Shown here in pieces: positions 32,342-50,383 of a DNA stretch of 64,000 nucleotides. The position numbers and the translations under genes are program-made. This stretch comes from an uncultured bacterium (GTDB lineage Bacteria > Patescibacteriota > Microgenomatia > Levybacterales > UBA12049): the NCBI GenBank assembly GCA_963826535.1, contig CAWGXL010000011.1, positions 64,809-128,808 of the forward strand, written 5' to 3'. Within the stretch, counting starts at the first letter, position 1, and each line of letters begins with the position of its first letter. A model generated the notes under the pieces. It had not been told where the DNA came from and ran no database searches. It worked only from the letters and a program-made list of their open reading frames with translations.

Positions 32342-32453
32342 CGTAGTGGAGAGATCTCACCCCACAAAGTTGCTAGGTGGTATGAGATTCACCCAAAGGG
32401 TACTATCCACTTTGTGGTGTCGCCTAGACTCCTGTTGGTCGCTCGGAATGACA
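32342..32453. repeat. MITE-like palindromic element, copy 1 (truncated left end), family with GTCATT...AATGAC termini
   Basis: Region 32342-32453 is a near reverse-complement match to 46229-46341 (shared cgtagtggagRgatctca and ggtcgctcgRaatgaca blocks). It starts at the rpsQ stop codon. Confidence 0.55.
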
Positions 32454-32493
32454 AATTTTAAACAGACTCTAAGATAAAAAAGGAGAAAAAAGT

Positions 32494-32868
32494 ATGATAC
32501 AAATGCGAACGATTCTTACCGCAGCAGATAATAGCGGGGCAAAACAACTAACAGTTATCCATGTTTTCGGTGGCTCGAAGAGAAGATTTGGACACATTGG
32601 AGACATTGTTAATGTTGTGGTTAAAACAGCCATGCCGCATGGCCAGGTAAAAGATGGTGAGATATGCAAGGCTGTTGTAGTCCGAACCAGAAAAGAATAT
32701 CGCCGGTCTGACGGATCATACATTAGATTTTCAAATAATGCGGCAGTAATTATCGATAATGCCAAAGACAAAAATCCTAAAGGCACGCGTATTTTTGGTC
32801 CGATTGCCCGTGAAGTCCGTGAAGCTGGGTTTGCCAAAATTGCCAGTATGGCAACGGAGGTAGTGTAG
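32494..32868 (+). CDS. rplN: 50S ribosomal protein L14
   Basis: [17 protein letters not shown]...[11 protein letters not shown]14 signature. Confidence 0.9.
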
Positions 32869-32914
32869 ATGAGGGTAAAAGGTAAAGGGTTAAGGGTAAA
32901 GAAAAATAAACAGT

Positions 32915-33232
32915 ATGAAACTCAAAAAAGGTGACGAAGTAAAAATAACAATTGGAAAAGATGCCGGTAAAACCGGAAAGATCGAAAAAGTATTTACCAA
33001 AGAACAAAAAGTGCTTGTCTCAGGTGCGAACCAGTATAAAAGGCATGTGAAGGCGCGCGTTCCGGGCAAAAAGTCGGAAATTATAACAATTACTAAACCT
33101 TTACCCGTAGGCAATGTTGCGCTCATTTGTCAAAAATGCAAGCAACTAACCAGAGTTGGATACAAATTTATTAAAGATGATAAAATAAGAATTTGTAGAA
33201 AATGTAACGAGGAAATAAGTGAGAAAAAGTGA
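32915..33232 (+). CDS. rplX: 50S ribosomal protein L24 (KOW) with C-terminal CxxC...CxxC zinc-ribbon-like tail
   Basis: KKGDEVKITIGKDAGKTGKI KOW motif. C-terminal CQKC...CRKC. Confidence 0.8.
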   Translation: MKLKKGDEVKITIGKDAGKTGKIEKVFTKEQKVLVSGANQYKRHVKARVPGKKSEIITITKPLPVGNVALICQKCKQLTRVGYKFIKDDKIRICRKCNEEISEKK

Positions 33233-33816
33233 CATATATGGAAAGCAAAACTTTACAAGAACAATTTAAAACAACGATAGCCAAGAAATTGCAGGAGAAG
33301 CTGAAAATGAAAAACTTACTGGCTCTACCGCATATGACTAAAATAGTTGTCAATATCGGAGTAAAAGATGCTGTCGTAGACAAGAAAAATATTGAACGGA
33401 TGGAAAAGGCACTATCCTTAATTACAGGCCAAAAACCAAAAATCACTAAAGCCAAAAAGGCTATTGCTACTTTTAAGCTACGCCAAGGCGATCCGATCGG
33501 TCTGGTCGTTACAATTCGCGGTAAAAGAATGTATGCATTTTTTGAAAAAATTGTTAAAATTGTACTTCCCCGCATGAGAGATTTTCGCGGCATCAATAGA
33601 AAAAGTTTTGACGGACATGGAAATTATACTCTTGGGCTGCATGAATATTCGGTTTTTCCGGAGATTGATCCGGCTAGCGTAGATAGGTTACAAGGACTGG
33701 AAATTATATTTGTTACAACCGCGCCAGACAATAATACAGGCATTATATTACTTGAAGCAATGGGGATGCCATTCGCAAAAGAACTCGCACAGCGAAAAGC
33801 TGGAGATATGGTATAA
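33229..33816 (+). CDS. rplE: 50S ribosomal protein L5
   Basis: Conserved position. NRKSFDGHGNYTLGLHEYSVFPEI L5 motif. Confidence 0.85.
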   Translation: MTYMESKTLQEQFKTTIAKKLQEKLKMKNLLALPHMTKIVVNIGVKDAVVDKKNIERMEKALSLITGQKPKITKAKKAIATFKLRQGDPIGLVVTIRGKRMYAFFEKIVKIVLPRMRDFRGINRKSFDGHGNYTLGLHEYSVFPEIDPASVDRLQGLEIIFVTTAPDNNTGIILLEAMGMPFAKELAQRKAGDMV

Positions 33817-33983
33817 TTCCAAAGCTGATAAAAATATGACATTAAATTCGAATATCGAAGCACGAAATTCGAAACAAATTCAAATGTTCAAAATACAAAT
33901 GACAAAAACGTTTTGAATTTGAAAATTAGAATTTTGAAAATTGTTTAGGATTTCGATATTCGGATTTCGGATTTATTTAGGAT

Positions 33984-34169
33984 ATGGCTAAATTATCAAA
34001 CATTGTAAAATTTAAAAGAAAACAAAAATTTGCGGTCCGCATGATGAGCCGCTGTGGTATTTGCGGGAGAAACCGTGCGTATATGCGTAGGTTCGGTTTA
34101 TGCAGAATTTGTTTTCGCGAAAGAGCAATGAAGGGCGAATTGCCCGGAGTACTTAAAGCAAGTTGGTAA
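33984..34169 (+). CDS. rpsZ: 30S ribosomal protein S14 type Z (zinc-binding)
   Basis: 61 aa with [23 protein letters not shown] zinc-ribbon S14 signature. Confidence 0.9.
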
Positions 34170-34215
34170 GCCCGGTTAAACTCCGATTAAATTGGAGAAT
34201 TCGGGATAAAAATAT

Positions 34216-34608
34216 ATGATGAATTATACGACAGGAGATTTTATTATACAGTTGAAAAATGCATCCCGAGCTAGAATTAGAGAGGTATATATGCCCTTTT
34301 CCAATACCAAAAAAGCTATCGGGAAAGTATTAATAAAAGAAAGATTTCTAGAAGAAGTTAAAGAGGAAGAAATTGAAGGGAAAAAAGTATTATATGTAAA
34401 ACTTCGATATCAGGCAAGGCGCCCAGTATTAACTGACGTTGCTATAGTTTCCAAGCCATCTCTGCGGGTATATGTTGGCGCAAATGAAATAGTTAAGTAT
34501 CAAAGAGGGGCACAAACAGCCATCCTATCAACTAATAACGGTATAATGACCGGAAAGGAGGCCTTAAAAAAAGGGGTCGGTGGCGAACTCCTCTTTAAGA
34601 TTTGGTAG
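34216..34608 (+). CDS. rpsH: 30S ribosomal protein S8
   Basis: TGDFIIQLKNA...ILSTNNGIMTGKEA S8 pattern. Confidence 0.85.
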   Translation: MMNYTTGDFIIQLKNASRARIREVYMPFSNTKKAIGKVLIKERFLEEVKEEEIEGKKVLYVKLRYQARRPVLTDVAIVSKPSLRVYVGANEIVKYQRGAQTAILSTNNGIMTGKEALKKGVGGELLFKIW

Positions 34609-34612
34609 TAAT

Positions 34613-35164
34613 ATGTCAAAAATAGGAAAAGCGTCAATTGAAATAAAAAGCGGTATAACAACATCAATACAAGGAAGTATCGTAAAAATAGCAGGCCCAA
34701 AAGGGCAATTTGAATATCATGTTCCAGTTGGATTTGAAATTGTTATAAATGAGGGGAAAATACAGGTATTGCCAAAAGGGAAAACGGATAAAAATAGCAG
34801 CGCGATGTATGGATTAGTAAGAGCAAGTATTGCTAATATGGTAAAAGGCGTAGAAAAAGAATTCGAAAAAAAACTTGAACTATCCGGAGTTGGCTACAAA
34901 GCGCAAATGCAGGGACAAGATTTGATGCTCTCGCTTGGCTTCGCGCGTCCTGTGAATTACAAATCCAAGCCCGGTATAAAAATTGCAGTTGTTGATAACG
35001 TTGTTGTTATTACGGGAATAGATAAGTCGCTGGTTGGTGAGGCTGCGGCAAAAATCCGCGCAATCAAACCGCCTGAGCCATATAAAGGAAAAGGGATTAA
35101 ATATAAAGGCGAAAAAATAAGAAGAAAAGCTGGAAAAGCTGCCAAAGCAGTCGGAACTAAATGA
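34613..35164 (+). CDS. rplF: 50S ribosomal protein L6 (start placed at the ATG after the rpsH stop; the longer ORF from 34580 overlaps rpsH)
   Basis: MSKIGKASIEI...two-domain L6 pattern. Confidence 0.8.
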   Translation: MSKIGKASIEIKSGITTSIQGSIVKIAGPKGQFEYHVPVGFEIVINEGKIQVLPKGKTDKNSSAMYGLVRASIANMVKGVEKEFEKKLELSGVGYKAQMQGQDLMLSLGFARPVNYKSKPGIKIAVVDNVVVITGIDKSLVGEAAAKIRAIKPPEPYKGKGIKYKGEKIRRKAGKAAKAVGTK

Positions 35165-35243
35165 GACGAAGACGCAAGACTTAAGATGTAAGGCTTAAGG
35201 TTTGCGAACATATATCGTATATCGTAAGTCTAAAGTCATAAAT

Positions 35244-35573
35244 ATGAGCAGAATAAAAAGAGAAAAAAGAATAAGAAAGAAGATTGAACATGTCTCGAAT
35301 AGGCCAAGGTTGAGCGTTTTCAGGTCCAACAAATATGTGTATGCGCAAATCGTCGACAAATTTGGCAAAACTCTTTTGGGTCTGACGGAAAAAAGCTTAG
35401 AAAAAAAAGGGGCAACCAGAATTGAAAACGCAAAAGAATTAGGGAAAGCTATTGCGAAAATCGCGCTTGATAAAAAAATTAAAGAAGTCGTCTTTGACAA
35501 GGGTAGATTTGCATATCACGGAAAAGTCAAGGCCGTGGCTGAAGGAGCAAGAGAAGGAGGATTACAGTTTTAA
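35244..35573 (+). CDS. rplR: 50S ribosomal protein L18
   Basis: RKKIEHVSNRPRLSVFRSNKYVYAQIVD L18 signature. Start chosen at MSRIKREK. Confidence 0.85.
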   Translation: MSRIKREKRIRKKIEHVSNRPRLSVFRSNKYVYAQIVDKFGKTLLGLTEKSLEKKGATRIENAKELGKAIAKIALDKKIKEVVFDKGRFAYHGKVKAVAEGAREGGLQF

Positions 35574-35579
35574 AAGACT

Positions 35580-36068
35580 ATGAATTATAACAGACGAGAC
35601 CAAGCGCAATCAGAATACGAAGAACAAATTGTGGAAATCAACCGGGTCTCCAAAAAAACCAAGGGGGGTAATAAAATCGGCTTTTCCGCTTTAGCTGTTG
35701 TCGGAGACAAGAAAGGCAAAGTAGGCGTGGGACTCGGAAAAGCGCCTGATGTCTCGGCCGCGATTAAAAAAGGGATCAGCCGGGCAAAAAAGCACTTAAT
35801 TGAAGTACCGCTAACCCGCGGAACAATTCCTTTTAGAATAGATATCAAACTCGGTGCAGCTAAGATTATGCTCAAGCCGGCGCCTCCCGGGAGTGGTATT
35901 ATTGCAGGAGGCGCAGTGAGAAGCGTTGTTGCAGCAGCGGGAATTCAAAATATCTCAACTAAAGTTCTTGGTACAACCAATCCCGCCAGCAATGTAGCGG
36001 CGACTATAGAAGCCCTGAAGAGATTAAGTGACCTGGCTCAACGGGATATAGCGCGAAGAAAGTTATGA
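35580..36068 (+). CDS. rpsE: 30S ribosomal protein S5
   Basis: VSKKTKGGNKIGFSALAVVGDKKGKVGVGLGKA S5 motif. Confidence 0.9.
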   Translation: MNYNRRDQAQSEYEEQIVEINRVSKKTKGGNKIGFSALAVVGDKKGKVGVGLGKAPDVSAAIKKGISRAKKHLIEVPLTRGTIPFRIDIKLGAAKIMLKPAPPGSGIIAGGAVRSVVAAAGIQNISTKVLGTTNPASNVAATIEALKRLSDLAQRDIARRKL

Positions 36069-36514
36069 ATTTAACTGATCTAACCAAAATAACAGCTAAA
36101 AGTAAAAAAAGAGTCGGCCGTGGGCATGGTAGTGGCCGAGGTAAAACATCCGGCAGAGGCACAAAGGGTCAACTTGCAAGGAATAATCCGAAGCTTGATT
36201 TTGACGGCGACGGAACTCCTTTAATTAGAAAACTTCCCTTCCTGCGTGGAAAAGGAAGAAATAATTCATTACAACAAAAACCATTAATTATCAATATCGA
36301 CAGCCTCAATATATTTTCTGAAGGAGCAGTTGTAGACATCGAAGCTCTTGTCAAGCACAGGTTGGTTCGTCTCAATGAAGCAAAAGAATATGGAGTAAAA
36401 ATTTTAGGAGACGGGGAAATCCAAAAATCTTTAACTATAAAACTACCCATCTCCAAAAACGCTGCCAAAAAAATTGAAGTAGCAGGAGGCAAAATCGAAT
36501 TGTTACATGAATAA
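36065..36514 (+). CDS. rplO: 50S ribosomal protein L15 (no L30 gene between rpsE and rplO)
   Basis: [23 protein letters not shown]15 motif. 4-nt overlap with rpsE. Confidence 0.9.
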
Positions 36515-37799
36515 ATTTCTCGATATCCTGAAAAACAGCTTTAAATCGCCGGAAATTCGTAAAAAGATCTTATTTACTCTTTTCATCCTTTTCATAGTCA
36601 GAATTTTCGCGCATATCCCAGTTGCCGGTGTAAATCTGGAAGCCCTCAAAAATTTATTTGACAGCAATCAATTTCTCAGTTTGCTTAATATTTTTTCAGG
36701 AGGCACACTGGCAAATTTTTCAATTATAGGTCTTGGGCTCAATCCATATATTAACGCTTCGATTATAATTCAATTACTAACCATGGTTTTCCCAAAGCTC
36801 GAAGAACTCTCGAAAGAAGGAGACTCGGGAAGAAGAAAGATTAATCAATATACTAGATTTTTGACAATTCCCTTAGCTGTGCTCCAGGGCATCGGCATGT
36901 ATGCACTCCTTAATAGCCAAGGAATTATAGGCGCTCTTAGTCCGGTGGCGTTTATCTCATTTGTAGCAATCATGACTTCCGGTACAGTTTTTCTAGTCTG
37001 GCTGGGTGAACTAATTACTGAACGCGGAATTGGCAACGGAATTTCGCTCTTAATTGCGGCGGGTATCTTAGGCGGGATTCCGGTTATAATCGGACAAACA
37101 CTTACAACTGCTACAGCTGAAACCGCAGCGAACACTTTGATACTTATCGCATTATCCCTAGTCGTTATCGCAGGTATTATAGTTGTCAATGAAGCAACGC
37201 GACAAATTACTGTCTTTTACGCCAAACGTGTACGGGGAAACAAAACGTATGGCGGACAGACCACGCATTTGCCCCTTCGCCTCAATCAGGCAGGCGTTAT
37301 TCCGATCATTTTCGCGGTTTCAATAGTTCTACTACCGGCCTTGCTGGCGAATTTCCTGCGTACTTCAAATAATCAAATTCTACGCAGCATATCAGAGAAT
37401 GTTAATATCTGGTTTGATCCAAGCGGCGTTATATACAATGTTTTTTACTTCCTGCTTGTTGTTGGTTTTACTTATTTCTACACGGCAATTATTTTCAACC
37501 CAAAAAAAATTGCCGAAGAAATCCAAAAGTATGGCGGCTTTATTCCGGGAATCAGGCCAGGGAAGCCTACCTCCGTATACCTTAATTACATTCTAGTCAG
37601 AATTACACTGGTTGGTGCAAGCTTTTTGGGAATTATTGCCATCATGCCATCCTTTGCCGGTACAGCAACCGGTATTCAGACATTATTCCTCGGAGGCACA
37701 GGAGTTCTTATCGTGGTAAGTGTCATCCTTGAGACTTTCAAATCCATTGAAGCCAGTTTAGTCATGAGAAACTATGAATCATTTTTACAAACTAAATAA
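36507..37799 (+). CDS. secY: Preprotein translocase subunit SecY
   Basis: 430 aa with 10 TMs. Conserved operon position after rplO. Confidence 0.9.
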
Positions 37800-37863
37800 C
37801 ATTTAAAAGACCTCACCCTACCCTCTCCTATGAGGAGAGGGAAAATGAGGATGGAATAATTAT

Positions 37864-38421
37864 ATGAAGTTAATTTTACTGGGTATACAGGGAGCGGGCA
37901 AATCAACACAAGGAAACCTGCTCAAGAAAAAATTCAACATTCATTACCTTTCAACGGGTCACATCTTCCGTGATCTAGCCAAAGAGCATACTATTATTGG
38001 AAGAAGAATAAAAGAAACCATGAACGCGGGCTATCTTATACCTGACAAGCAAACTTTGAAAATAGTCTCCGAGTATTTAAGCCGCCCTGAATATCAAAAA
38101 GGCTATATTATGGATGGATTCCCTAGAACTGTCAAACAAGCCGAGAGTTTCGAAAACGGTATTGATAAGGTAATTTATCTTAAGGTTTCAGATCCTGAAG
38201 CACTATGGCGGCTCTCCTTCCGTAACCATGATGACGGTAGGCAAGACGAAACGCTTGCTGCAATTCGCAAACGGATTATGTTATATCATAAATATACTGA
38301 CCCGGTGCTGGATTTCTACAGAAAGCATAGGAAGCTTGTAGAAATTGACGGGGAACAAAAGATAATAGATATTCACAGGGAAATCCTCGACAAACTAGGA
38401 ATAAAAAACCATAAAAAATAA
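37864..38421 (+). CDS. adk: Adenylate kinase (short form without zinc lid)
   Basis: GIQGAGKSTQ P-loop, YIMDGFPRTVKQAE NMP-binding motif. Confidence 0.85.
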   Translation: MKLILLGIQGAGKSTQGNLLKKKFNIHYLSTGHIFRDLAKEHTIIGRRIKETMNAGYLIPDKQTLKIVSEYLSRPEYQKGYIMDGFPRTVKQAESFENGIDKVIYLKVSDPEALWRLSFRNHDDGRQDETLAAIRKRIMLYHKYTDPVLDFYRKHRKLVEIDGEQKIIDIHREILDKLGIKNHKK

Positions 38422-38428
38422 ATCCTCT

Positions 38429-38983
38429 ATGAAATATATTATTGCGCTTGTCGGAATGCCAGGATCCGGAAAAAGCGAAGCGGCGGCTTACCTGCAAAAG
38501 AAAGATATACCATTTATAAGGTTCGGAGACTTAACAGATGCAACTATTAAGGAGATGGGCCTGCCGCTTACTCCCGAAAACGAACAGATTGCAAGAGAAA
38601 AATTAAGAAAAGAATTTGGCATGGATATATATGCCATAAAAGCAAATCCTAAAATACAACCTTTATTAGAAATCCATCCGGTTATAGGGTTAGATGGGTT
38701 ATATTCCTGGGAGGAATATGTTTATTTAATTAAGCGTTTTCCACAACTGATAATTCTACATATTTTTGCGCAACCTAAGATACGATATGAACGCCTGTCA
38801 AAAAGAACTATCAGACCGCTTACCCTCGACCAAGCCCGAGCAAGAGATATTGCTGAAATTAATAAATTACACAAAGCCGGGCCAATTGCAATTGCCGATT
38901 ATATGATTGAAAATAATAGCGAGGACCTTAATATATTATACGGTAAGCTTGATAACCTACTCGCCCGTTTAGAAATAAAATAA
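38429..38983 (+). CDS. UPF0200/AAA_17-like P-loop nucleotide kinase
   Basis: IALVGMPGSGKSEAAAYL P-loop. Overall similarity in layout to archaeal-type adenylate/dephospho-CoA kinase-like UPF0200 proteins. Confidence 0.45.
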   Translation: MKYIIALVGMPGSGKSEAAAYLQKKDIPFIRFGDLTDATIKEMGLPLTPENEQIAREKLRKEFGMDIYAIKANPKIQPLLEIHPVIGLDGLYSWEEYVYLIKRFPQLIILHIFAQPKIRYERLSKRTIRPLTLDQARARDIAEINKLHKAGPIAIADYMIENNSEDLNILYGKLDNLLARLEIK

Positions 38984-39005
38984 CTTTAAGATATGCAAAA
39001 TAATT

Positions 39006-39116
39006 TGTCATTCCCCTGGACAGGGGAATCCAGAAGATATAAATAACTCTTCCTTATAAAGGTTAAATAGAAAAACTTATTTTTACCTACTGGATTCCCG
39101 CGTTCGCGGGAATGAC
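39006..39116. repeat. MITE-like palindromic element with termini tgtcattccc / gggaatgac and internal hairpins
   Basis: Terminal inverted repeats at 39006-39015 and 39108-39116. Internal hairpins attcccctg-gac-aggggaat and attcccgcg-ttc-gcgggaat. Intergenic between the kinase gene and map. Confidence 0.55.
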
Positions 39117-39135
39117 GTTGGTCTGCTTTAGACGA

Positions 39136-39930
39136 GTAAATCTTATGATTCATATTAAGTCAGCGGAGGAAATTAAAATAATGATAGCCGGAGGACGTAT
39201 CTTAAGTGATGTTCTTTTTGAGGTTTTGGATGCAGTACGTCCTGGCATCAAGGAAATAGAAATAGACCGGCTGGCTGAAAAATTGATCCGCGAAAAAGGT
39301 GGAGAACCGGGCTTTATGCGCGTCAAGGGTTACCGTCATACGACCTGCATGTCCACCAATGATATTATCGTTCATGGTATTCCGGGTAATTATATATTTA
39401 AAGAAGGTGATGTGGTGGGAATTGACTGTGGCGTCTACTATCAGGGTTTCCATTCGGATATGTCTGAAAGTATAAGTATCAAAAACGGTAAACCTCATTA
39501 TTATACAGGCCGAGAAACAGGTGGTACGGAGATTGATAAATTTCTAACAATTGGTAAAAAAGCATTAAACGAAGCGATCAAGGTCGCCATCCCCGGAAAT
39601 CGCGTAGGGGCAATCTCAAAGACTATCCAAGATATTGTTGAAATAAAAGCAGGATACTCAATCGTAAGAAGTTTAATTGGCCATGGAGTAGGACGAGAAT
39701 TACACGAAGAACCTGAAGTACCCGGCTACCTATTAGGGGATATCAAACATACTCCACCTCTTCAAGAAGGGATGACGATCGCTGTCGAAATTATTTATAA
39801 TATGGGCACACCGGAAGTTGTAATTGACAAAGATGGCTGGACAATTCGTACCAAAGATGGCAAATTGGCAGGTCTCTTTGAAAGATCTATCGCGATAACT
39901 AAAAATAGCCCGCTAATTTTGACAAAATAA
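39136..39930 (+). CDS. map: Methionine aminopeptidase type I
   Basis: MIHIKSAEEIKIM...metal ligands in GIDCG, HGVGRELHEEP and EI(I)YN blocks. Confidence 0.85.
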   Translation, partial: VNLMIHIKSAEEIKIMIAGGRILSDVLFEVLDAVRPGIKEIEIDRLAEKLIREKGGEPGFMRVKGYRHTTCMSTNDIIVHGIPGNYIFKEGDVVGIDCGVYYQGFHSDMSESISIKNGKPHYYTGRETGGTEIDKFLTIGKKALNEAIKVAIPGNRVGAISKTIQDIVEIKAGYSIVRSLIGHGVGRELHEEPEVPGYLLGDIKHTPPLQEGMTIAVEIIYNMGTPEVVIDKDGWTIRTKDGKLAGLFERSIAITKNSPLILTK

Positions 39931-39985
39931 ACTACATCTAAATATTTCGGTTGCCCTATGGAGCGTAGTTTGATATAATGTTTGG

Positions 39986-40207
39986 ATGGCTCACCAAGGC
40001 TCATTCGAAAAAGATGGGGTTGTAAAGGAGGCTTTGCCAAATACATTATTTCGGGTTGAGCTTGAAGATGGGACAATTGTTCTTTGTCATCTATCAGGCA
40101 AAATGAGAATGAATTTTATAAAAATTTTACCGGGAGACAAGGTGCGGATTGAAATGACACCATACGACCCGAATAGAGGCAGGATAATACTGCGCTACAA
40201 TAGGTAG
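39986..40207 (+). CDS. infA: Translation initiation factor IF-1
   Basis: S1-like [31 protein letters not shown]...RIILRY. Confidence 0.85.
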
Positions 40208-40222
40208 ATAGGAAATAAACTT

Positions 40223-40396
40223 ATGAAAGTACAAGCAAGTGTAAAAAAAAGGTGCATGAAATGTAAGATAATCAGACGCAAAGGGGTTGTACGCGTCACG
40301 TGTGAGAATCCCAGACACAAACAGAGACAAGGGTGAAGAAAGTTTAAAGTGCAAAGTGCAAAATTCAAAGTTACATAAGGAAATTTTTTATAATTA
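40223..40396 (+). CDS. rpmJ: 50S ribosomal protein L36 with atypical extended C-terminus (possible 1-nt indel)
   Basis: [32 protein letters not shown] matches L36. The canonical ...HKQRQG* ending is replaced by ...[26 protein letters not shown]. An extra A in cacaacag would restore HKQRQG-stop. Confidence 0.6.
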
Positions 40397-40442
40397 ATCC
40401 CTTAACTTTAAACTTTGCGATTTGAGAATTTAGTTTTTATTT

Positions 40443-40856: not shown

Positions 40857-40859
40857 CAT

Positions 40860-41273: not shown

Positions 41274-41278
41274 AAATG

Positions 41279-41346
41279 TAGCTGTCAGCTATTGGCTATC
41301 AGCTTTTAGATGTCTGATAGCAGAAAGCTTACAACAGAGAGCTAAA
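41279..41346 (+). repeat. Structured intergenic repeat in the r-protein cluster, copy 3 (before rpsD)
   Basis: Sequence tagctgtcagctattggctatcagcttttagatgtctgatagcagaaa has the same palindrome tagctg-t-cagcta and hairpin gctatcag...ctgatagc. Confidence 0.55.
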
Positions 41347-41951: not shown

Positions 41952-41972
41952 TGATACAATCATACACATAAT

Positions 41973-42905: not shown

Positions 42906-42919
42906 TCCCCCCTTAATTT

Positions 42920-43360
42920 ATGAGAAAAAATGTTTTTGGAAGACAACTGAAAAGAGATTCAAATGAGCGAAAAGCGCTTTTTAAAAACTTGCTAAGCTCA
43001 TTAGTGCTGCATGAAAGTATTACAACATCACATGCCAAAGCAAAAGCGATCAAGCCTAGTGCCGACAAACTCATTACCTATACAAAAAAAGGTGGCCTTC
43101 ACGCCTATCGAATGCTTGAACCGGAATTATCAACTGAGGCGGTCAAAAAGCTATTAAATACAATTGCGCCAAGATTTACAAACCGACATGGAGGTTATAC
43201 GAGAATTATCAAAGTAGGGAATAGACTCAAAGATAATTCCAGTGAGGTTATTCTTGAATGGACAGAAAAAGGCATAAATCCAAAGACGGCAAACCTAGAA
43301 TCAGCAAGTGAGAATCCCCAAAAAACCGCTAAGAAAGAAACGAAGGTAAAGAAAAAATGA
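42920..43360 (+). CDS. rplQ: 50S ribosomal protein L17
   Basis: GRQLKRDSNERKALFKNLLSSLVLHESITTS L17 pattern. Confidence 0.85.
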   Translation: MRKNVFGRQLKRDSNERKALFKNLLSSLVLHESITTSHAKAKAIKPSADKLITYTKKGGLHAYRMLEPELSTEAVKKLLNTIAPRFTNRHGGYTRIIKVGNRLKDNSSEVILEWTEKGINPKTANLESASENPQKTAKKETKVKKK

Positions 43361-43794
43361 ACAGAGTAGCAACACAACCAACAAAAGCAAATCAAATAAA
43401 AAGAGAATGGCATTTAGTTGATGTCAAAAATGAAACGCTTGGTAGAATTTCGACCAAGATTGCACTAATGCTTATGGGCAAAAGCAAGCCCTACTTTGTC
43501 CGCAATCTTGACTGCGGTGATTATGTCGTTGTCCTCAATTCCAAAGCTGTCCGGCTCACCGGCAAAAAAGAAGAAAATAAGGCATATAAGCGTCACTCCG
43601 GCTATCCCGGTGGTTTCAGATCTGAGACAGTGCGTGAATTACGTGACCGCAGGCCTGAAGATATAATTAAAAAAAGCGTAAAAGGGATGTTGCCGGATAA
43701 TCGTCTCAAAGACAAAATGTTAGCCAGATTATTTGTTTTTCCCGGAGAAGAACACACTTATAAAGATAAATTAAAAATTCAAAGCACCAAATAA
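43357..43794 (+). CDS. rplM: 50S ribosomal protein L13
   Basis: REWHLVDVKNETLGRISTKIALMLMGK L13 start. 4-nt overlap with rplQ. Confidence 0.9.
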   Translation: MNRVATQPTKANQIKREWHLVDVKNETLGRISTKIALMLMGKSKPYFVRNLDCGDYVVVLNSKAVRLTGKKEENKAYKRHSGYPGGFRSETVRELRDRRPEDIIKKSVKGMLPDNRLKDKMLARLFVFPGEEHTYKDKLKIQSTK

Positions 43795-43898
43795 CAAATA
43801 ATATCAAAATTCAAATAATTAAATCCAAAACATGTTTTGATATTTGAATTTAAATATTTGTATTTATTTGGAATTTGTAATTTATATAATACAACTAT

Positions 43899-44381
43899 AT
43901 GGTAGATACAGAACAAAAGACAACGAGTACAAAGAAACCTCTTAAGAGGGAGTTTGTCTCTGCAACCGGCAAACGCAAAGAAGCGGTCGCTCGTGTGCGG
44001 TTATATCAATTTGTCAAAGAAAGCCTTACATGGGCAAACGTACCTGTTAAAAAGGGTGAAATGTTAGTAAATCAAAAACCGATTGCAGAATATTTTCCAA
44101 GCACAGCTGAACAGCATCGGTATACAGAACCACTGCGTATTACTAACGCACATCAAAATAATTACGCCTTTACGATCAAAGTCGTAGGCGGCGGGCATGC
44201 AGGACAACTTGATGCGGTAATTGCGGGGATTTCTAATGTGCTACAAAAACTTGATCCTGAAAAATACCGCCCGATTTTAAAGAAAAAAGGGTTTCTTACC
44301 CGCGACGCGCGGATCAGACAGCGCCGAAACATAGGCACCGGGGGTAAGGCACGGCGTCAGAAACAGTCTCCAAAACGGTAA
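43899..44381 (+). CDS. rpsI: 30S ribosomal protein S9 with N-terminal extension
   Basis: C-terminal GGGHAGQ...RRNIGTGGKARRQKQSPKR S9 signature. Confidence 0.85.
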   Translation: MVDTEQKTTSTKKPLKREFVSATGKRKEAVARVRLYQFVKESLTWANVPVKKGEMLVNQKPIAEYFPSTAEQHRYTEPLRITNAHQNNYAFTIKVVGGGHAGQLDAVIAGISNVLQKLDPEKYRPILKKKGFLTRDARIRQRRNIGTGGKARRQKQSPKR

Positions 44382-44390
44382 AGAATAGCC

Positions 44391-46205
44391 ATGGCTTCTA
44401 CAAAAGCAATTAAAGCAGGATACTCTGCAAAACTCGACGGCAAGGCTGCTTATATTCGCAATTATCTTTCAGATAGTAGTTTAAATAAAATAAAAGTTTT
44501 GCGAACTCATCAAGGGATTGCTGATTTTTGTTACAAAAATAGCTCCACTTTCAAGAAAGATTTTTTAAGCCGTATTGGAGTAAAAAAATTAAAAACTTAC
44601 CGCAGCCATGTTGATAAAAAGGAACTCGAAGATTTTATAATGCGATTATCCCAGTTCGATGGCGAGTGCGTTTTCCTGCTAAAAGATACTTTTGATTTAC
44701 TCAATTCTTATCAAGAAAAAACAGGTAAGGGTTCCGGCATTTTGGTAAATAGAAACTTTCTTTGCAGAAGAGAAGAGGATTATTTTTCGTTGATTGAGAT
44801 TATCTATAAATCCCTAGCTCAATCAGTTAACATAAATGATTTTTCAGAAAAATATTTTGCTCTATTCCATCAATTACTACAAAAAAACCCACATTTTCTA
44901 GATAAAGCAAAAAAGCTCTTTGAGTACGTATTAGCCCACACGAGCAAGCAAAAGATTATTTTTGTTGACATGGGATTTCAGTTTACCTTCTCACTTTTCT
45001 GTGTTGCAGCAAGCAGGTATTTCGGTAATGGGAAAATATGCACTGATTTTTATAGTTTTTCGACTTATACCTGGTTACAAGAGTTTTTTAAAAATAAATA
45101 TTTTTCCGCAAAGAGTGAGGTTGTTTTAGAATTAGAACTTGAAGCAATTGAGAATTTTCAAAACTCTTTACAGAACAAGGCATCCGGGGCAATGGTTGGA
45201 TTTGCAATTGGCGATGCCCTTGGTTTTCCGGTCGCAGGAATTGATAAAAGAGATATTTTAAAATTCGTTAAAGGAGAAATTGGCTCGTTTTTAGAAAATA
45301 AAAAGCACCCATTTTTTAATAATCTAAAGAAAGGGCAGTACACGGATAATACTAAATTATTGATGATTTCTGCAAAGCATCTAATTAAAAATGGTGATTT
45401 TGTGATTGAAAAATATCAGAATAATTTAGCAAACTGGGGTAAAAAAATTTTGCGCAATCCTCACACTGAAAGGTGGGCAGGGCCTACAGCGATAAAAGCT
45501 GTTAAAAATTTGATCGACGGAAAAAGTTATCTTGATTCCGGCTCAACTACAACCGAATCATGTTCTGCAACGTATCGAGTAATTCCTTTGGGCATTTTCA
45601 ATCATCCTTTTGCAAAGAATGGAATTGATAAGCTAAAAAATTCTGCTGAAATTTCGGCTATGATTACTCATAATTCCGAAATTTCTAAGACAGGAGCAGC
45701 AATAACAGCTTTTATTATTGGAGATTTGATGTGCGGCATAATTCCTGAAAAAGCGGTTAATGCTTCCCTATTGGAAGTTGGCGAGACGGGTAAAAATAAA
45801 CTCTTGATTGAGAAAATACGGCAAGCTGTAGATTTCAGTAAAACTAAAGGGGTTGAATTTGGCAGAAATGAATTCGGAACAGGATCCCCTATTTATCAAA
45901 CACTACCGCTTGCTATTTTCTGTTTTCTTAAATTTCAGAATGATTTTGAAAAAGCAGTTATTGCAGCGGCAAATTCATTTCGGGACGATTCGCTAGAGGA
46001 GAAAAAGCGATTGCAAAAATATTCCTGGGAGGAACAATTGCAGAATGCAAAAGGTGGAAATACAGATGGTATAGCCGGTTTGACGGGCGCTTTTGTTGGC
46101 GCACATCTTGGTGTCAGTAAAATACCAAGAAAATTTTTGGGTATCGAAGACGAAAAAATGCTCGAGACACTTGGCAAGAAACTATTGTACATTAAGATAA
46201 TCTGA
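44391..46205 (+). CDS. Two-part protein: unknown N-terminal about 250 aa plus C-terminal ADP-ribosylglycohydrolase (ARH/DraG-like) domain
   Basis: GFAIGDALGFPVAG and YTDNTKLLMIS match the ARH family GDALG and TDDT metal-site motifs. Starts 10 nt after rpsI. Confidence 0.55.
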   Translation: MASTKAIKAGYSAKLDGKAAYIRNYLSDSSLNKIKVLRTHQGIADFCYKNSSTFKKDFLSRIGVKKLKTYRSHVDKKELEDFIMRLSQFDGECVFLLKDTFDLLNSYQEKTGKGSGILVNRNFLCRREEDYFSLIEIIYKSLAQSVNINDFSEKYFALFHQLLQKNPHFLDKAKKLFEYVLAHTSKQKIIFVDMGFQFTFSLFCVAASRYFGNGKICTDFYSFSTYTWLQEFFKNKYFSAKSEVVLELELEAIENFQNSLQNKASGAMVGFAIGDALGFPVAGIDKRDILKFVKGEIGSFLENKKHPFFNNLKKGQYTDNTKLLMISAKHLIKNGDFVIEKYQNNLANWGKKILRNPHTERWAGPTAIKAVKNLIDGKSYLDSGSTTTESCSATYRVIPLGIFNHPFAKNGIDKLKNSAEISAMITHNSEISKTGAAITAFIIGDLMCGIIPEKAVNASLLEVGETGKNKLLIEKIRQAVDFSKTKGVEFGRNEFGTGSPIYQTLPLAIFCFLKFQNDFEKAVIAAANSFRDDSLEEKKRLQKYSWEEQLQNAKGGNTDGIAGLTGAFVGAHLGVSKIPRKFLGIEDEKMLETLGKKLLYIKII

Positions 46206-46228
46206 AAAGGCCCTATTATGCATCAATT

Positions 46229-46341
46229 GTCATTTCGAGCGACCAAAGGGAGTCGAGAAATCTCATCGTACATGCAAAATCAAATTCTGTCTTTTCGGTC
46301 TAATCAGTGGTATGAGATCCCTCCACTACGGTCGGGATGAC
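46229..46341. repeat. MITE-like palindromic element, full copy (tgtcatttcgagcgacc ... ggtcgggatgaca)
   Basis: Imperfect terminal inverted repeats. Reverse-complement match to 32342-32453. Confidence 0.55.
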
Positions 46342-46350
46342 AAAAGGAGA

Positions 46351-47256
46351 CTATTCCACCCACCCTAATTCTATTTTGATCTCTTTTACAGACTTTTCAT
46401 ATTGGTCTTTGGTCAACTGATTGTTTAAGATACAATATTTTTTATTTTTTAATCCCACACAACCGAAGCAGTCGGAGCAATTTTTAAGATACGCGCCATA
46501 GTGGCAATTTGTACAACTAAAAGAAAAACTTAGAAAGACACAATTATAGCAACAGTCTGTCCATACATGTTCATAGCATTGCTCTGAAATTTTTTTTGAT
46601 TCTGTGTCCCCTCCGGCAAAATACATATCCCAACAGTTTTTCATCATGCCAGCTTGATAACTATAACCGGAGTTTTCAGCGTAATAAACCGCAAAGCACC
46701 AATAACAATTTTTTGAATCATAGATATAATTTCCATATATACAATTCTCGCTATTGAACTGCTGGTTTGCCGGATGCGGTATCTTTTCTTTTAATTCAAG
46801 CAGTTGAGCAAGGATCTTTTCCGGTTTTTCTTTCTTTAATTCTTCTAACTTTTTCAGATATTCCTCTTTCGTATATTGTTTGTTGAAAATACAATATTTT
46901 TTATGAGTAAGACCAACGCAACCGAAGCAGTCAGTACAAGAGTTTAAAAAGGCAGAGTAATGGCAATCTGTACAATTATTACATTCGATAAGGTATGTGC
47001 AACTATGAGATTTTGTACATTCAATACTTTGAAAACACTTCTCCGATTCAAAAACGGACGTACAATCTACGAGGCTCGTACCCATACTACGATTCGCATA
47101 AATACTGTCATAAAGTCTGTATGAATCAAAGCAGTAATAACTGTTCTTACTAATATCGACCATATCTACATATTCACAAGCAACATTATCTCTAATCATT
47201 ACAGCCGGCACGGGAACAGATTTTTTTAGGAGCGCATATTTTTCAAGGAAGGTCAT
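46351..47256 (-). CDS. Cysteine-rich MTFLEKY-family protein (array position A)
   Basis: 301 aa. Family N- and C-termini. 3' end and upstream region are nucleotide-identical to paralogs. Confidence 0.7.
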   Translation of the reverse strand: MTFLEKYALLKKSVPVPAVMIRDNVACEYVDMVDISKNSYYCFDSYRLYDSIYANRSMGTSLVDCTSVFESEKCFQSIECTKSHSCTYLIECNNCTDCHYSAFLNSCTDCFGCVGLTHKKYCIFNKQYTKEEYLKKLEELKKEKPEKILAQLLELKEKIPHPANQQFNSENCIYGNYIYDSKNCYWCFAVYYAENSGYSYQAGMMKNCWDMYFAGGDTESKKISEQCYEHVWTDCCYNCVFLSFSFSCTNCHYGAYLKNCSDCFGCVGLKNKKYCILNNQLTKDQYEKSVKEIKIELGWVE

Positions 47257-47288
47257 TGATCGATATTATAGCAGTAATTTATTGTTGA

Positions 47289-48197
47289 TTATATTTTCCA
47301 CCCTAATTCTATTTTGATCTCTTTTACAGACTTTTCGTATTGTTCTTTGGTTAGCTGATTATTTAAAATACAATATTTTTTTTTGGAGAGTCCTACGCAT
47401 CCGAAGCAGTCGGTGGAGTTCCTAAGATCTGCGCTATAGTAGCAATGCGTGCAATACTCAGAATTGTTTAAATACGCACATTCATAATTAGCATCAGAAT
47501 CAGTAATTTCATAACAGCGTTCAGAAAAAATTCTTTTGTTTACATCTCCTCCGTTATAAAAGCCATCCCAGCAGTTTTTCAACAGTCCTCCTATTGTTAA
47601 ATAACCAGAATTTTCACTTTCGTAACTGTTAAAGCACCAATAGCAGTTTTTTGAATCATACATGTAATTTCCATATAGGCAATTTTCACTATTGAACTGC
47701 TGGCTTGCTGGATGGGGGATTTTTTGTTTTAAATCAAACATTTTCTTGAGTAAGTTATCATGCTTCTCTTTTTTCAATTCATCAACCTTTTTCAGATATT
47801 CCTCTTTAGAGTACTGCTTATTAAAAATGCAATATTTTTTGTGTGTTAAGCCAATACAGCCGAAGCAATTTGTGCAATTGTTTAAATAAGCCGATAAATG
47901 ACAATCAGTAGAATTGTTTGAATCAAAAATATAAGTGCAGCTATGGCATTTAGTTGAGTCAACTGACTCGTAGCATTTTTCTGATTCCATTTGTACAAAA
48001 GTACAATCTACAAGTTTATTCCCCCAGCAATAGTAACAATATATACTATCTACGAGCAAATAACAGCCGATGCTATAATAGCAATTTTTACTGCTATAAC
48101 AATAATCTACGTAGTGACAATCAATTGAATGGGTACCAATTGCAGCCGGGACAGGAATTGATTTTTTAAGGAGTTGGTATTTTTCAATGAATGTCAT
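47289..48197 (-). CDS. Cysteine-rich MTFLEKY-family protein (array position B)
   Basis: 302 aa. Shares the upstream block ttaagaagtatgccttatttaaac with copy B'. Confidence 0.7.
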   Translation of the reverse strand: MTFIEKYQLLKKSIPVPAAIGTHSIDCHYVDYCYSSKNCYYSIGCYLLVDSIYCYYCWGNKLVDCTFVQMESEKCYESVDSTKCHSCTYIFDSNNSTDCHLSAYLNNCTNCFGCIGLTHKKYCIFNKQYSKEEYLKKVDELKKEKHDNLLKKMFDLKQKIPHPASQQFNSENCLYGNYMYDSKNCYWCFNSYESENSGYLTIGGLLKNCWDGFYNGGDVNKRIFSERCYEITDSDANYECAYLNNSEYCTHCYYSADLRNSTDCFGCVGLSKKKYCILNNQLTKEQYEKSVKEIKIELGWKI

Positions 48198-48345
48198 AAT
48201 TCAGTTAAGAAGTATGCCTTATTTAAACATACAAGTTGGGTATTTACAAGCAAAAATAATAAGTGCATGAAAGTTTTGCTTGACTAGAGTTTAGGATGGG
48301 TAAAAACTTTGTAGTTTATTATAAATTACTAATTATTTGCAATAA

Positions 48346-49258
48346 TTAATATTTCCACCCAAGCTCTTTTTTTATAATTTTTACTGCTTTTTCGTATTGT
48401 TCTTTTGTAAGCTGATTATTCAAAATACAGTATTTTTTATTCTTAAGTCCCACACAGCCGAAGCAGTCTGTGCAGTTTGTAAGATCTGCGCTATGGTAAC
48501 AATTCGTGTTATTCTCAGAATTATATAAATAGGCGCATTCATAATTACATCTGGATTCAGTCAATTCATAACATCGCTCTGACTTTGTTTTGGTACCAGG
48601 AATCCCACCAGAGCGAAACATATCCCAACATTTTATTGCACTAGCAATAACAAATATATAGCCGGAATCTTCGCTATAAAATGCGCTAAAACTCCAAAAA
48701 CAATTTTTGGAGTCATATAAATAATTCCCATAAGGAGAATTTTCAGTGTTGGACTGCTGGCTTGCGGGATGTGGGATTTGTTTTTTTAATTCATTCATTC
48801 GCTCAAGAATTTTTTCCGGCTTTTCTTTTTTTAATTCAGAAAGTTTTTTAAAATACTCATCTTTTTTATATTGTTTATTAAATATGCAATACTTCTTGTG
48901 GCTTAGAGCAACACAACCAAAGCAATCTGTGCATGAGTTTAATAAAGCGGAAAAATGACAGTCTGTACTGTTATTGCATTCTATAAGATATGTAGAGCTA
49001 TAGCACTTTGTACATGCAACACATTCATAGCAGTTTTCAGACTCATACAAATATGAGCATTCAACAAGATTATTACTGGCGGCACAGAAATAAGTATAAA
49101 TACAGTACTCGAAGAGTGCTCCCGTCAAAACAGTAATAGCAATTTTTACTTCTGTATGTACCGTCTACATATTCACTGTCAACGGTATACGGACCAATCG
49201 ACACAGATTGAACGGGGATGGATTTTTTTAGGAGTTGGTATTTTTCAAGAAAGGTCAT
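48346..49258 (-). pseudogene. Cysteine-rich MTFLEKY-family paralog (array position A'), frameshifted near the 5' end
   Basis: Family N-terminus MTFLEKYQLLKKSIPVQSV lies in ORF 49073..49258. The remainder lies in ORF 48346..49128 in another frame. Confidence 0.6.
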
Positions 49259-49290
49259 AGATCGATATTATAGCAGTAATTTATTGATGA

Positions 49291-50199
49291 TTATATTTTC
49301 CACCCTAATTCTTTTTTTATTTCTTTTACAGATTTTTCATATTGTTCTTTGGTTAACTGATTATTTAATATACAATATTTTTTTTTGGAGAGTCCTACGC
49401 AACCAAAACAGTCTGTGCAGTTTCTGAGATCGGCGCTGTAATTACAATTCGTGTTATATTCGGAATTGTTTAAATACGCACATTCATAATTAGCATCTGA
49501 ATCAATACATTCATAACAGCGCTCAGAGAAAATTTTCTTGTTCCAATCGCCTCCACAATAAAAGAGTTCCCAACTATTTTTCATTAAGCCGCTCATGCTA
49601 AAATATCCGGAATTTTCACACTCATAACTATTAAATGCCCAGTAACAATTTTTTGAATCATAAATATAATTTCCATAAAGACAGTTCTCAGTGTTGAATT
49701 GTTGGCTTGCTGGATGCGGTATACTTTTCTTCAATTCAAACATTCTCTTGAGTAGTATTTCAGGATTTTCTTTTTTTAACTCTCGGACCCTTTTAACATA
49801 CTCTTCTTTACTGTACTGTTTATTAAAGATGCAGTATTTTTTGTGTGTCAGCGCAACACAACCGAAGCAATCTGTACATTTGTTTAAATATGCCGAGAAA
49901 TGACAATCAGTAGAATTGTTTGAATCAAAAATATAAGTGCAGCTATGGCATTTAGTTGAGTCAACTGACTCGTAGCATTTTTCTGATTTCACCTGTACAT
50001 AAGTACAATCTACAAGTTTATTTCCCCAGCAATAGTACGAATATAAACCATCTACTTGTAAAAAACAGCCAATACTATAATGACAATTTTTACTACTGTA
50101 GCAATAATCCACATAGTCACAATCAACCGAATGAGAACCTATATAAGCCGGCACAGGAATGGATTTTTTTAGGAGTTGGTATTTTTCAAGGAAGGTCAT
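49291..50199 (-). CDS. Cysteine-rich MTFLEKY-family protein (array position B')
   Basis: 302 aa. Highly similar to 47289..48197, including the flanking non-coding sequence. Confidence 0.7.
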   Translation of the reverse strand: MTFLEKYQLLKKSIPVPAYIGSHSVDCDYVDYCYSSKNCHYSIGCFLQVDGLYSYYCWGNKLVDCTYVQVKSEKCYESVDSTKCHSCTYIFDSNNSTDCHFSAYLNKCTDCFGCVALTHKKYCIFNKQYSKEEYVKRVRELKKENPEILLKRMFELKKSIPHPASQQFNTENCLYGNYIYDSKNCYWAFNSYECENSGYFSMSGLMKNSWELFYCGGDWNKKIFSERCYECIDSDANYECAYLNNSEYNTNCNYSADLRNCTDCFGCVGLSKKKYCILNNQLTKEQYEKSVKEIKKELGWKI

Positions 50200-50290
50200 A
50201 TTTTGATTAAGAAGTATGCCTTATTTAAACACACAAGGCGGGTATTTACAAGCAAAAATTAAATAACTACTCACTTAGTAACCAAAAATT

Positions 50291-50383
50291 GTCATTGCGA
50301 GGAGCACCCCGCTGAGCGGGGGCGACGAAGCAATCTCCATTAACAATGGGATTGCCGCGCTCTCCCGATTTAATCGGGATCGC
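50291..50383. repeat. MITE-like palindromic element (gtcattgcgag ... ctcgcaatgac) containing the cccgatttaatcggg hairpin
   Basis: 11-nt perfect terminal inverted repeats. Internal hairpins cccgctgagcggg and cccgatttaatcggg. Lies 69 nt upstream of metG. Confidence 0.55.

Follow-up and report, generated by a model that had tools for sequence, protein, structure and literature searches.

Outward-facing hairpin pairs in a patescibacterial ribosomal-protein region: probable gene-less miniatures of units built around Ssn-type GIY-YIG nucleases

The Neisseria repeat known as NTS (CGTCATTCCCGCGMAVGCGGGAATCYRG) encompasses the dRS3 repeat (ATTCCC-N8-GGGAAT) and is bound as single-stranded DNA (ssDNA) by SsnA, a 94-aa single-domain GIY-YIG nuclease that cuts a few nucleotides upstream of it (Chenal et al., Nat Commun 2025, PMC11893778). 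In N. meningitidis the GTC that precedes the palindrome is critical for cleavage, and the C that follows the palindrome is critical for binding; the substrates of SsnA exclude double-stranded DNA, RNA, and the reverse strand, and RNA is not bound (PMC11893778). Homologues of SsnA (Ssn, defined in that paper by CDD cd10448) occur across phyla and are flanked by ‘Ssn-related motifs’ (SRMs), with Wolbachia as an SRM-rich genus in which an Ssn has been characterized; the NTS-ssnA-NTS arrangement was likened to an insertion sequence (IS), and domestication was proposed for the SsnA/NTS pair, which modulates natural transformation of N. meningitidis (PMC11893778). Here we analyze four short elements, designated c1–c4, that lie within 18 kb of a 64-kb window of DNA (the whole stretch analyzed, 64,000 nucleotides of contig CAWGXL010000011.1 from an uncultured member of the Patescibacteria, or candidate phyla radiation (CPR)) and whose hairpins probably belong to this system.

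All four elements are real, measure 103–134 bp, and have no coding capacity. They share one architecture, an inverted pair of hairpin modules with GTC facing outward; each module follows a common grammar, GTC|AT..arm..loop..arm'..AT|C, in which the loop is sometimes a stem-loop itself, and the invariant termini are GTCAT...ATGAC, usually TTGTCAT...ATGACAA. The explanation that we favor, with a probability of roughly 70%, is that the elements are gene-less miniatures of units in which a GIY-YIG gene is bracketed by hairpins, that is, outward-facing inverted pairs of SRMs with three specificities. They are MITE-like (MITE, miniature inverted-repeat transposable element) in architecture but are not classical MITEs, and they add to the repeat system that was described in 2025 and do not amount to a new one.

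The elements occupy positions that differ in kind. Element c1 (134 bp; 32320–32453) is located in the 3' tail of rpsQ (ribosomal protein S17; 32024–32341, plus strand), upstream of rplN (L14; 32494–32868); c2 (110 bp; 39007–39116) is located between the second adenylate-kinase-like gene and map; c3 (113 bp; 46229–46341) separates the gene for an ADP-ribosylglycohydrolase-domain protein (44391–46205) from a convergent, paralogous 301-aa gene; and c4 (103 bp; 50291–50393) has divergent genes on its two sides, that for a 302-aa paralogue on the minus strand and metG on the plus strand, which encodes methionyl-tRNA synthetase (MetRS; from ~50452). Thus, two elements are within operons (c1 and c2), one is in a convergent region (c3), and one is in a divergent region (c4); c1 and c3 are oppositely oriented. 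The initial annotation, made by a model from the letters of the DNA, had placed four elements at these intergenic sites, and Pfam confirms the gene names it gave to their neighbors (S17/L14, AAA-kinase/Map, ADP-ribosylglycohydrolase, and MetRS). Its extent for c3 stands, as do its ends for c1 and c2 and its start for c4; however, c1 starts at 32320 instead of 32342, with its left hairpin within the S17 open reading frame (ORF), c2 extends from 39007 instead of 39006, and c4 ends at 50393 instead of 50383.

The same annotation had treated the four elements as one family; instead, we find three types of hairpin module, that is, three specificities: an NTS/dRS3 type (c2), an A/B type (c1 and c3), and an ATTGC type (c4). 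At both ends of c2, ATTCCC-N8-GGGAAT is followed by CCAG. The left module of c2 (39007–39030, plus strand) reads GTC|ATTCCC-CTGGACAG-GGGAAT|C, and its right module (39090–39117, minus strand), CGTCATTCCCGCGAACGCGGGAATCCAG, matches the Neisseria NTS consensus at 28 of 28 positions; the other seven termini in the window do not match that consensus. Between the two dRS3-form repeats of c2 (ATTCCC-CTGGACAG-GGGAAT and ATTCCC-GCGAACGC-GGGAAT) is a 62-nt A+T-rich spacer. Element c4 consists of two ATTGC-type modules placed back to back with a 14-nt spacer; its ends read ATTGC..GCAAT and enclose G+C-rich inner hairpins, with GTC|ATTGC-GAGGAGC(ACCCCGCTGAGCGGGGGC)GACGAA-GCAAT|C on the left (50291–50335, plus strand) and GTC|ATTGC-GAGCGA(TCCCGATTAAATCGGGA)GAGCGCG-GCAAT|C on the right (50350–50393, minus strand). 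A module similar to the latter is present in IMG/VR contig L063 (L numbers designate the loci and contigs compared with the window). We also considered a tRNA for c4, since its fold resembles a cloverleaf, and rejected it.

In c1 and c3, an A module (GTCATTYCGAGCGACC..GAGTCGAGRAATC) is paired with a B module (GTCATCYCGACCGTAGTGGAGRGATC). The left, A-type module of c3 (46229–46262, plus strand) reads GTC|ATTTC-GAGCGACCAAAGGGAGTCGAG-GAAAT|C and has near-identical counterparts in IMG/VR contigs L012, L018, L028, L065, and L082; its right, B-type module (46316–46341, minus strand) reads GTC|ATCCC-GACCGTAGTGGA-GGGAT|C, and an identical module is found in many phyla. In c1, the A-type module is on the right (32388–32453, minus strand; GTC|ATTCC-GAGCGACCAACAGGAGTC-(35-nt inner stem-loop)-TGAAT|C); its arm is imperfect, its ssDNA fold is weak, and its long-loop variant occurs also in metagenome locus L203. 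The B-type module of c1 (32320–32356, plus strand; GTT|ATCTC-GACCGAAGCGATAGCGTAGTGGA-GAGAT|C) has an extended loop and a GTC that is mutated to GTT; this left hairpin, GTTATCTCGACC...GAGATC, is a degenerate mirror of the right terminus of c1, and its loop, CGAAGCGATAGCG, recurs in L163, L180, L191, L195, L197, and L203. The terminal motif GTCATT(S)C, proposed at the outset for all four elements, is correct for c2 and c4 and incorrect for c3 (GTCATTTC / GTCATCCC) and for the left end of c1. The description of c1 and c3 as reverse-complement near-matches was likewise overstated: c3 and the reverse complement of c1 share only the termini GTCATTYCGAGCGACCAA..GGAGTC and GAGATCYCTCCACTACG, and overall the two are identical at 81 of 144 positions (56%).

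The published SRM pattern, HGTCWYN(0-2)YYVSBRHN(0-5)WNVSBRGN(0-2)RNCYNB, is its authors' search heuristic from 29 genomes and not a definition. The right end of c2 is its sole match in the window (0.06 expected). After this pattern had matched one of the eight termini, we wrote the arm-complementarity grammar given above. A strict scan of the window with the grammar yields seven matches, where 200 dinucleotide shuffles give 1.78 ± 1.35 and never more than 6; six of the seven are the termini of c2, c3, and c4 and form three outward-facing inverted pairs. These six strictly show the oriented hairpin, with GTC on the 5' side and C on the 3' side of the palindrome; the left end of c1 passes only when GTC is relaxed to GTY, and at its right end a single mismatch in the arm was read by eye. 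The 8-mer GTCATTNC by itself is not enriched in the window (12 matches, 7.2 expected). As ssDNA, the modules of c2 and c4 form stable hairpins (−6.7 to −11.7 kcal/mol), for example, −6.7 kcal/mol for c2 left, −8.0 kcal/mol for c2 right (z −3.3), and −11.7 kcal/mol for c4 right (z −2.7).

We then looked for the hairpins in other genomes. The inner 18-mer of the B module (CGTAGTGGAGRGATCTCA), used as the query against a genome collection, has 71 matches in 66 loci from Patescibacteria, Gammaproteobacteria, Firmicutes, Bacteroidota, Chloroflexota, and others; the same 18-mer was not found in IMG/VR. In 46 of these matches, the 5' arm GTCATCNCGAC, which the query does not constrain, is directly upstream, and it covaries with the R of the query pattern (C-G in 27, T-A in 19, mixed in none). 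The same loci contain 203 grammar hairpins in 448 kb, including 55 outward-facing inverted pairs (58–202 nt; commonest length, 90 nt) that usually combine an A-like with a B-like module, that is, the architecture of c1 and c3. When the 641 ORFs located no more than 1.5 kb from these hairpins were clustered, a single family recurred across unrelated genomes (six loci): proteins of ~90–100 aa in which Pfam identifies GIY-YIG (PF01541) alone (E values of 1e-14 to 1e-19). Hairpin modules are stacked on both sides of the GIY-YIG gene in five of the six loci; the remaining ORF clusters are translated repeats or orthologues from sister metagenome-assembled genomes.

Hairpins of the A/B and ATTGC types flank GIY-YIG genes in L129, L143, L096, L118, L090, L200, L204, and L206; in L115, the GIY-YIG gene is 275 nt from a hairpin, but the locus contains zero grammar matches. 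A scan of a metagenome collection with the sub-terminal motif of c1 and c3 (GTGGAGRGATCTCAYMCCAC) returned 48 loci (G+C 0.31–0.56, mostly low), many with c1- or c3-like miniatures. L200, L159, and one gammaproteobacterial lineage each have a GIY-YIG gene whose start is within ~70 nt of a module. Among the matches listed, close homologues of the L200 protein are encoded by Curtiss-, Blackburn-, Davies-, Gottesman-, and Roizmanbacteria, Paceibacterota, and Saccharimonadales. Locus L159 might be read as a composite with two copies of the GIY-YIG gene; its assembly appears to be either chimeric or degraded, and we do not rely on it.

The gene-carrying units are the counterparts from which the miniatures are best understood. 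In L206 (9948–10335) and L204 (9949–10323), a B hairpin, a gene for a 94-aa GIY-YIG protein, and an A hairpin follow one another, and the units read TT|GTCATCCCGACC..GTGGAGGGATCTAATACCAC, the 94-aa GIY-YIG ORF, and GTGGTATGAGATTCCTCGAC..CGCTCGGAATGAC|AA, with ATACCAC beside the B hairpin. On its minus strand, c3 reads TT|GTCATCCCGACCGTAGTGGAGGGATCTCATACCAC, a 53-nt spacer region, and ATGAGATTTCTCGAC..GCTCGAAATGAC|AA; its ends as well as its sub-terminal ATCTCATACCAC and ATGAGAT(T)TCTCGAC match both units, and they also match miniatures in L122 and L138. By this comparison of ends, c3 is a unit of the L206/L204 type minus the gene. A second gene-carrying unit in L204 (12115–12496) is of the c4 type, with GTCATTGCGAGGAG..GACGAAGCAATC (ATTGC) modules around a gene for a 98-aa GIY-YIG protein that is 55% identical to its 94-aa paralogue; these modules recur in L206. 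The hairpin-gene-hairpin units are roughly 375–390 bp in length. Other CPR genomes and metagenomes (L203, L122, L138, and L089) likewise contain gene-less forms of the c1, c2, and c3 types, including a full-length homologue of c1 in L203 (106 of 135 positions identical) that has an intact GTCATCCCGACC terminus and a c2-type miniature in a Levyibacteriota locus (L122, 7386–7479).

In the relatives of the window, the insertion sites can be examined directly. In seven syntenic loci (L001–L004, L152, L153, and L155; SecY 81–86% identical; ~105 kb), elements of the c1–c4 types are absent; the one grammar match there (L155, 12801–12845) is evidently due to chance. The S17 stop and the L14 start overlap by 4 nt in every relative locus that carries the junction, whereas the S17-L14 gap in the window is 152 nt; here the left module of c1 supplies the last seven codons of S17 and its TAG stop (32339–32341), so that the tail reads ...PKK-LLSRPKR*. 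A remnant of the old Lys-rich tail (..KIKKEKKV*) persists downstream of c1 and overlaps the L14 ATG as it does in L002. Because the relatives have the S17/L14 overlap and no element, c1 is an insertion that rewrote the last seven codons of S17. Between the kinase gene and map, the gap is 1–79 nt in the relatives versus 128 nt in the window. At this second site, we also note that the first ATG of the map ORF (39112) is inside the c2 terminus (GGAATGAC) and that the relatives align with the ATG at 39146, so over-extension of Map by 11 codons is probable in automatic annotation.

None of the 114 inverted pairs examined, those of the window included, is bordered by a target-site duplication of 5 bp or more; shorter duplications of 2–3 bp are below chance, and duplications of 4 bp are seen twice (0.7 expected). 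The flanks are TT|...|AA in 51 of the 114 pairs and simply extend the inverted repeat. The initial proposal of mobile miniatures is thus sustained for architecture and history (inverted repeats, no coding capacity, gene-carrying counterparts, absence from seven relatives) and is not sustained for classical MITEs or for a single family.

A mechanism can be proposed that connects these observations. Small single-domain Ssn nucleases of the GIY-YIG family would bind the SRM hairpins and cut just upstream of them, and miniatures would have been inserted into the S10-spc-alpha cluster of this lineage and into nearby intergenic regions, with c1 presumably landing in the dispensable Lys-rich tail of S17 and replacing its last codons. 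An Ssn that is encoded elsewhere in the genome, or that was formerly present, would nick the unit, while it is single-stranded, at both of its outer TT|GTCAT boundaries, which are on opposite strands, after which host replication or repair would copy or move the unit. Alternatively, or in addition, the hairpins may serve as Ssn targets on incoming ssDNA, as does the NTS in Neisseria transformation. That Ssn mobilizes these units we infer from the pairs of gene-carrying and gene-less forms, the outward geometry of the predicted cut sites, the insertions, and the absence of target duplications. By analogy with the mutagenesis in N. meningitidis, the GTT at the left end of c1 would impair cleavage, which suggests an immobilized copy.

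Several observations weigh against this explanation. Seven of the eight termini miss the SRM pattern, the left end of c2 by one position (checked by hand) and the other six because their loops are too long. The A/B modules are weak as ssDNA (−2.3 to −4.6 kcal/mol) and by z-score do not differ significantly from shuffles; for the pairing of their arms, the evidence is the covariation. Neither an ssn or other GIY-YIG gene nor a remnant of one is present within the 64-kb window, and NCBIfam and PDB have no specific model for the GIY-YIG proteins that neighbor the hairpins in other genomes, for which Pfam gives PF01541 only. Elements c3 and c4 have no orthologous empty site, because their neighboring genes are lineage-specific. 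Finally, Ssn has been described solely as an ssDNA endonuclease, and no transposition chemistry is known for it (PMC11893778).

The strongest alternative is that the same Ssn-target hairpins are kept by the host to control DNA uptake and recombination and are not selfish miniatures that move. Patescibacteria depend on DNA uptake, and such a role would find a precedent in the modulation of transformation by SsnA/NTS and the proposed domestication, as well as in the exact NTS at the right end of c2. We nevertheless consider it unlikely: the window contains only eight modules in 64 kb at heterogeneous positions, the relatives lack them at the syntenic loci, one of them disrupts the tail of a ribosomal protein, and three different specificities are located side by side. 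This alternative concerns the function of the elements and not their identity, so both it and the gene-less miniature explanation could be true.

A structured RNA that acts on its own transcripts, whether as a terminator, an attenuator, an mRNA stabilizer, or a small RNA gene, is considerably less probable, although terminators and small RNA genes had both been suggested at the outset. Elements c1 and c2 are inside a long operon, and RNA folding of both strands does give structures far better than shuffles for c2 (z −6.1 and −8.5) and c4 (z −6.6 and −6.8); for c1 and c3, the values are marginal and not significant (z −1.2 to −2.5). As regards termination, the elements are not followed by a T-tract, the 18 terminator-like sites in 31500–51000 all lie outside them, and the positions of the elements are inconsistent with that role. 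As regards small RNAs, no element matches Rfam at gathering thresholds; c2 alone matches a model, the full length of WsnRNA46 (a transcribed Wolbachia small RNA; E ~1e-4), and its score, 37.4 bits versus a gathering score of 65.3, is far too low for membership and rests on the shared SRM-type termini. The ATGACA of the termini provides weak outward −35-like matches at 32448 and 39011; in these two sigma-70-like sequences (32448–32475, plus strand, and 39011–38983, minus strand; 9 of 12 positions), which begin in the (A)ATGACA termini and point towards L14 and the kinase gene, respectively, we see a feature of the window in which promoter-like sequences overall are not above chance (70 versus 57.5 ± 8.5). 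The positions differ in kind, and their variety, together with the opposite orientations of c1 and c3, argues against a dedicated regulatory role; in addition, the relatives run the same operon without the elements. The arms covary without G-T intermediates, as expected if both DNA strands matter, and SsnA does not bind RNA (PMC11893778). Side effects of the insertions on the mRNA of the operon are likely.

Two further alternatives invoke other mobile elements. In the first, the hairpins would be REP/BIME- or PATE-like repeats mobilized by a Y1 transposase (RAYT or the TnpA of IS200-IS605), with the GIY-YIG gene incidental; extragenic palindromic hairpins in inverted pairs that leave no target-site duplication fit this proposal, and the analogy has been drawn for the NTS (PMC11893778). 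We regard it as very improbable, since GIY-YIG is the only family to recur across phyla among the 641 neighboring ORFs, with no recurrent Y1 transposase or TnpB-like ORF, the hairpins precisely bracket the GIY-YIG gene in CPR genomes, and the ends of IS200/IS605 elements are not inverted repeats, whereas these are. Least probable are classical cut-and-paste MITEs derived from a DDE-transposase IS with GTCAT... terminal inverted repeats, which would account for such repeats on insertions of ~100–135 bp that have no ORF and are missing from related genomes, but which are contradicted by the missing target duplications, by the lack of any IS with these ends in the loci retrieved, and by ‘terminal repeats’ that are themselves hairpins with covarying arms.

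With the gene-less miniature explanation retained, what can be said of a parent element is that the gene-carrying units share the ends of the miniatures and that their only gene encodes a GIY-YIG nuclease, which has no demonstrated transposase activity. On mobility, the comparison of genomes reaches somewhat further than the published account of Ssn: IS-like behavior, an idea only raised in the 2025 paper, is supported here by gene-carrying and gene-less forms that have the same ends, relatives without the insertions, a rewritten S17 tail, and the absence of target duplication. A much broader proposal, which we offer tentatively and regard as doubtful, is that hairpin-GIY-YIG units and their miniatures constitute an active, unrecognized class of mobile elements in which a ~94-aa Ssn-type nuclease mobilizes DNA via hairpins without target duplication, with several specificities coexisting in tiny CPR genomes, even in the ribosomal superoperon.

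Independent of that proposal, the analysis places in Patescibacteria a system first characterized in 2025 and identifies three hairpin specificities within 18 kb, one of them letter for letter the Neisseria NTS. In annotations of CPR genomes and metagenomes, such modules account for many short ‘hypothetical proteins’ that are spurious and for many genes with odd ends. The pairs of nuclease and hairpin in CPR genomes (the 94-aa protein with A/B modules and the 98-aa protein with ATTGC modules) are candidates for new ssDNA-cutting specificities.

Modules also occur in viral DNA. In viral contigs, a broad pattern (GTCATTNCGAGCGAYC) gives mostly chance matches, together with a dozen true A- or ATTGC-type modules in phage contigs; none of these has a GIY-YIG neighbor. 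In L018 (IMG/VR 3300017971_000759; 804–2432, minus strand), two tandem A-type modules are in frame within a large terminase-like ORF (..LVARNDGFGMVARNDG..), and the gaps between the genes of a phage structural region in L082 are filled with many modules. In L142 (~1773), L105 (~4666), L161, L169, and L185, the sequence downstream of a B-type module (GTCATCCCGACCGTAGTGGAGGGATCTCACACCAC) is conserved between Collierbacteria and other Patescibacteria; here the module may lie in, or be fused to, a conserved coding region.

Relatives L002 and L152 encode a GIY-YIG protein near infA that we considered as a possible Ssn and rejected, since it is of a different type and has no GTCAT hairpins. The gene (84–89 aa) is located beside tRNA-Phe and upstream of infA (L002, 17269–17705; L152, 14202–14728), and we take the protein to be UPF0213/YhbQ-like from our own reading of it. 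In L002, the gene is followed by a partial second copy of the 3' part of the tRNA, which is what the integration of an element there might leave behind. The window contains neither a GIY-YIG gene of this type nor any tRNA.

The window itself (G+C ~38%) contains the S10-spc-alpha ribosomal-protein cluster, and its nearest named SecY relatives are from a ‘Patescibacteria group bacterium’ (81%) and Candidatus Levybacteria (73%); the two adenylate-kinase-like genes, Map, and S9 are also confirmed by Pfam. A second intergenic repeat family of ~79 nt (27915–27985, 31286–31364, and 41273–41351; 66–85% identical) reads AGCTGTCAGCTATTAGCTATCAGCT..GATAGC..AAGCTAAxTTATG, and its copies end at the ATG of L4, L16, and S4. 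Other gaps in the ribosomal cluster are taken up by long A+T-rich palindromic tracts (33830–33985, 40335–40440, and 43795–43890) of several types (TTCGAAT/ATTTCGGATTT, AAAGTGCAAAG, and a palindrome of 16% G+C) that are unlike the GTCAT elements. Between secY and the first kinase gene is a lone hairpin without a GTCAT motif (37808–37850; CCTCACCCTACCCTCTCC-TATGA-GGAGAGGG..GAGG), which resembles another repeat that is common in metagenomes.

Six paralogues of ~300 aa (71–86% DNA identity) have no Pfam match; two are on the plus strand (5144–5980 and 10975–11883), and the four on the minus strand are in tandem between c3 and c4 (46351–47256, 47289–48197, 48346–49128, which looks 5'-truncated, and 49291–50199). 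The only match in the window to an Rfam model at its gathering threshold is a DUF3800-IX RNA (57783–57854, minus strand; 39.2 versus 36.8 bits), which adjoins a DUF5615 gene (57175–57612) and not a DUF3800 gene. Two very large ORFs of 1454 and 1738 aa (11912–16276 and 16307–21523, minus strand) have internal repeats of 276 bp and 1.3 kb and a strong AT skew; they are followed by a small T4SS-pilin-like ORF (21530–21829).

The elements can, finally, be placed among the repeats that have already been named. They are comparable with Correia elements and Rickettsia palindromic elements in being short palindromes inserted at the boundaries of genes and in that they can extend or replace the ends of ORFs (S17 in the case of c1); they differ in that there is neither a DDE parent IS nor a target duplication, whether of TA or otherwise, and their termini would be the protein-recognition hairpins of another system. 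With REP/BIME-RAYT and the PATEs of IS200/IS605 they share hairpin-forming extragenic repeats without target duplication, the existence of gene-less miniatures, and linkage to a gene for a small nuclease, with the repeats on either side of that gene; they differ in that the nuclease is a GIY-YIG protein and not a Y1 HUH transposase and in that the ends are inverted copies and not a left end and a different right end on the same strand.

Neisseria intergenic mosaic elements (NIMEs) are repeat units of 50–150 bp that are flanked by inverted dRS3 repeats. The likeness to NIMEs is confined to c2 and is drawn from its flanks, two inverted dRS3-form repeats around an intergenic 62-nt spacer; the phylum is unrelated, and the arms of c1, c3, and c4 (ATTTC/ATCCC and ATTGC) are not dRS3. 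Element c2 also resembles Rfam RF02625 (WsnRNA46) along the whole model, that is, GTCAT-hairpin-ATCCAG, an A+T-rich spacer, and CTGGAT-hairpin-ATGAC; given the score below gathering and an unrelated spacer, this is a resemblance of kind and not membership.

From the NTS/SRM system as published, the elements differ in their host, a member of the Patescibacteria (CPR), which are absent from the main text of that paper, in being discrete two-hairpin miniatures without a gene between the hairpins, and in being located in a 64-kb window that has no ssn gene. They resemble it in their oriented hairpins with GTC upstream and C immediately after the palindrome, in the occurrence of the same hairpin types on both sides of ~94-aa single-domain GIY-YIG genes, and in their multi-copy, mostly intergenic distribution in several phyla (PMC11893778).

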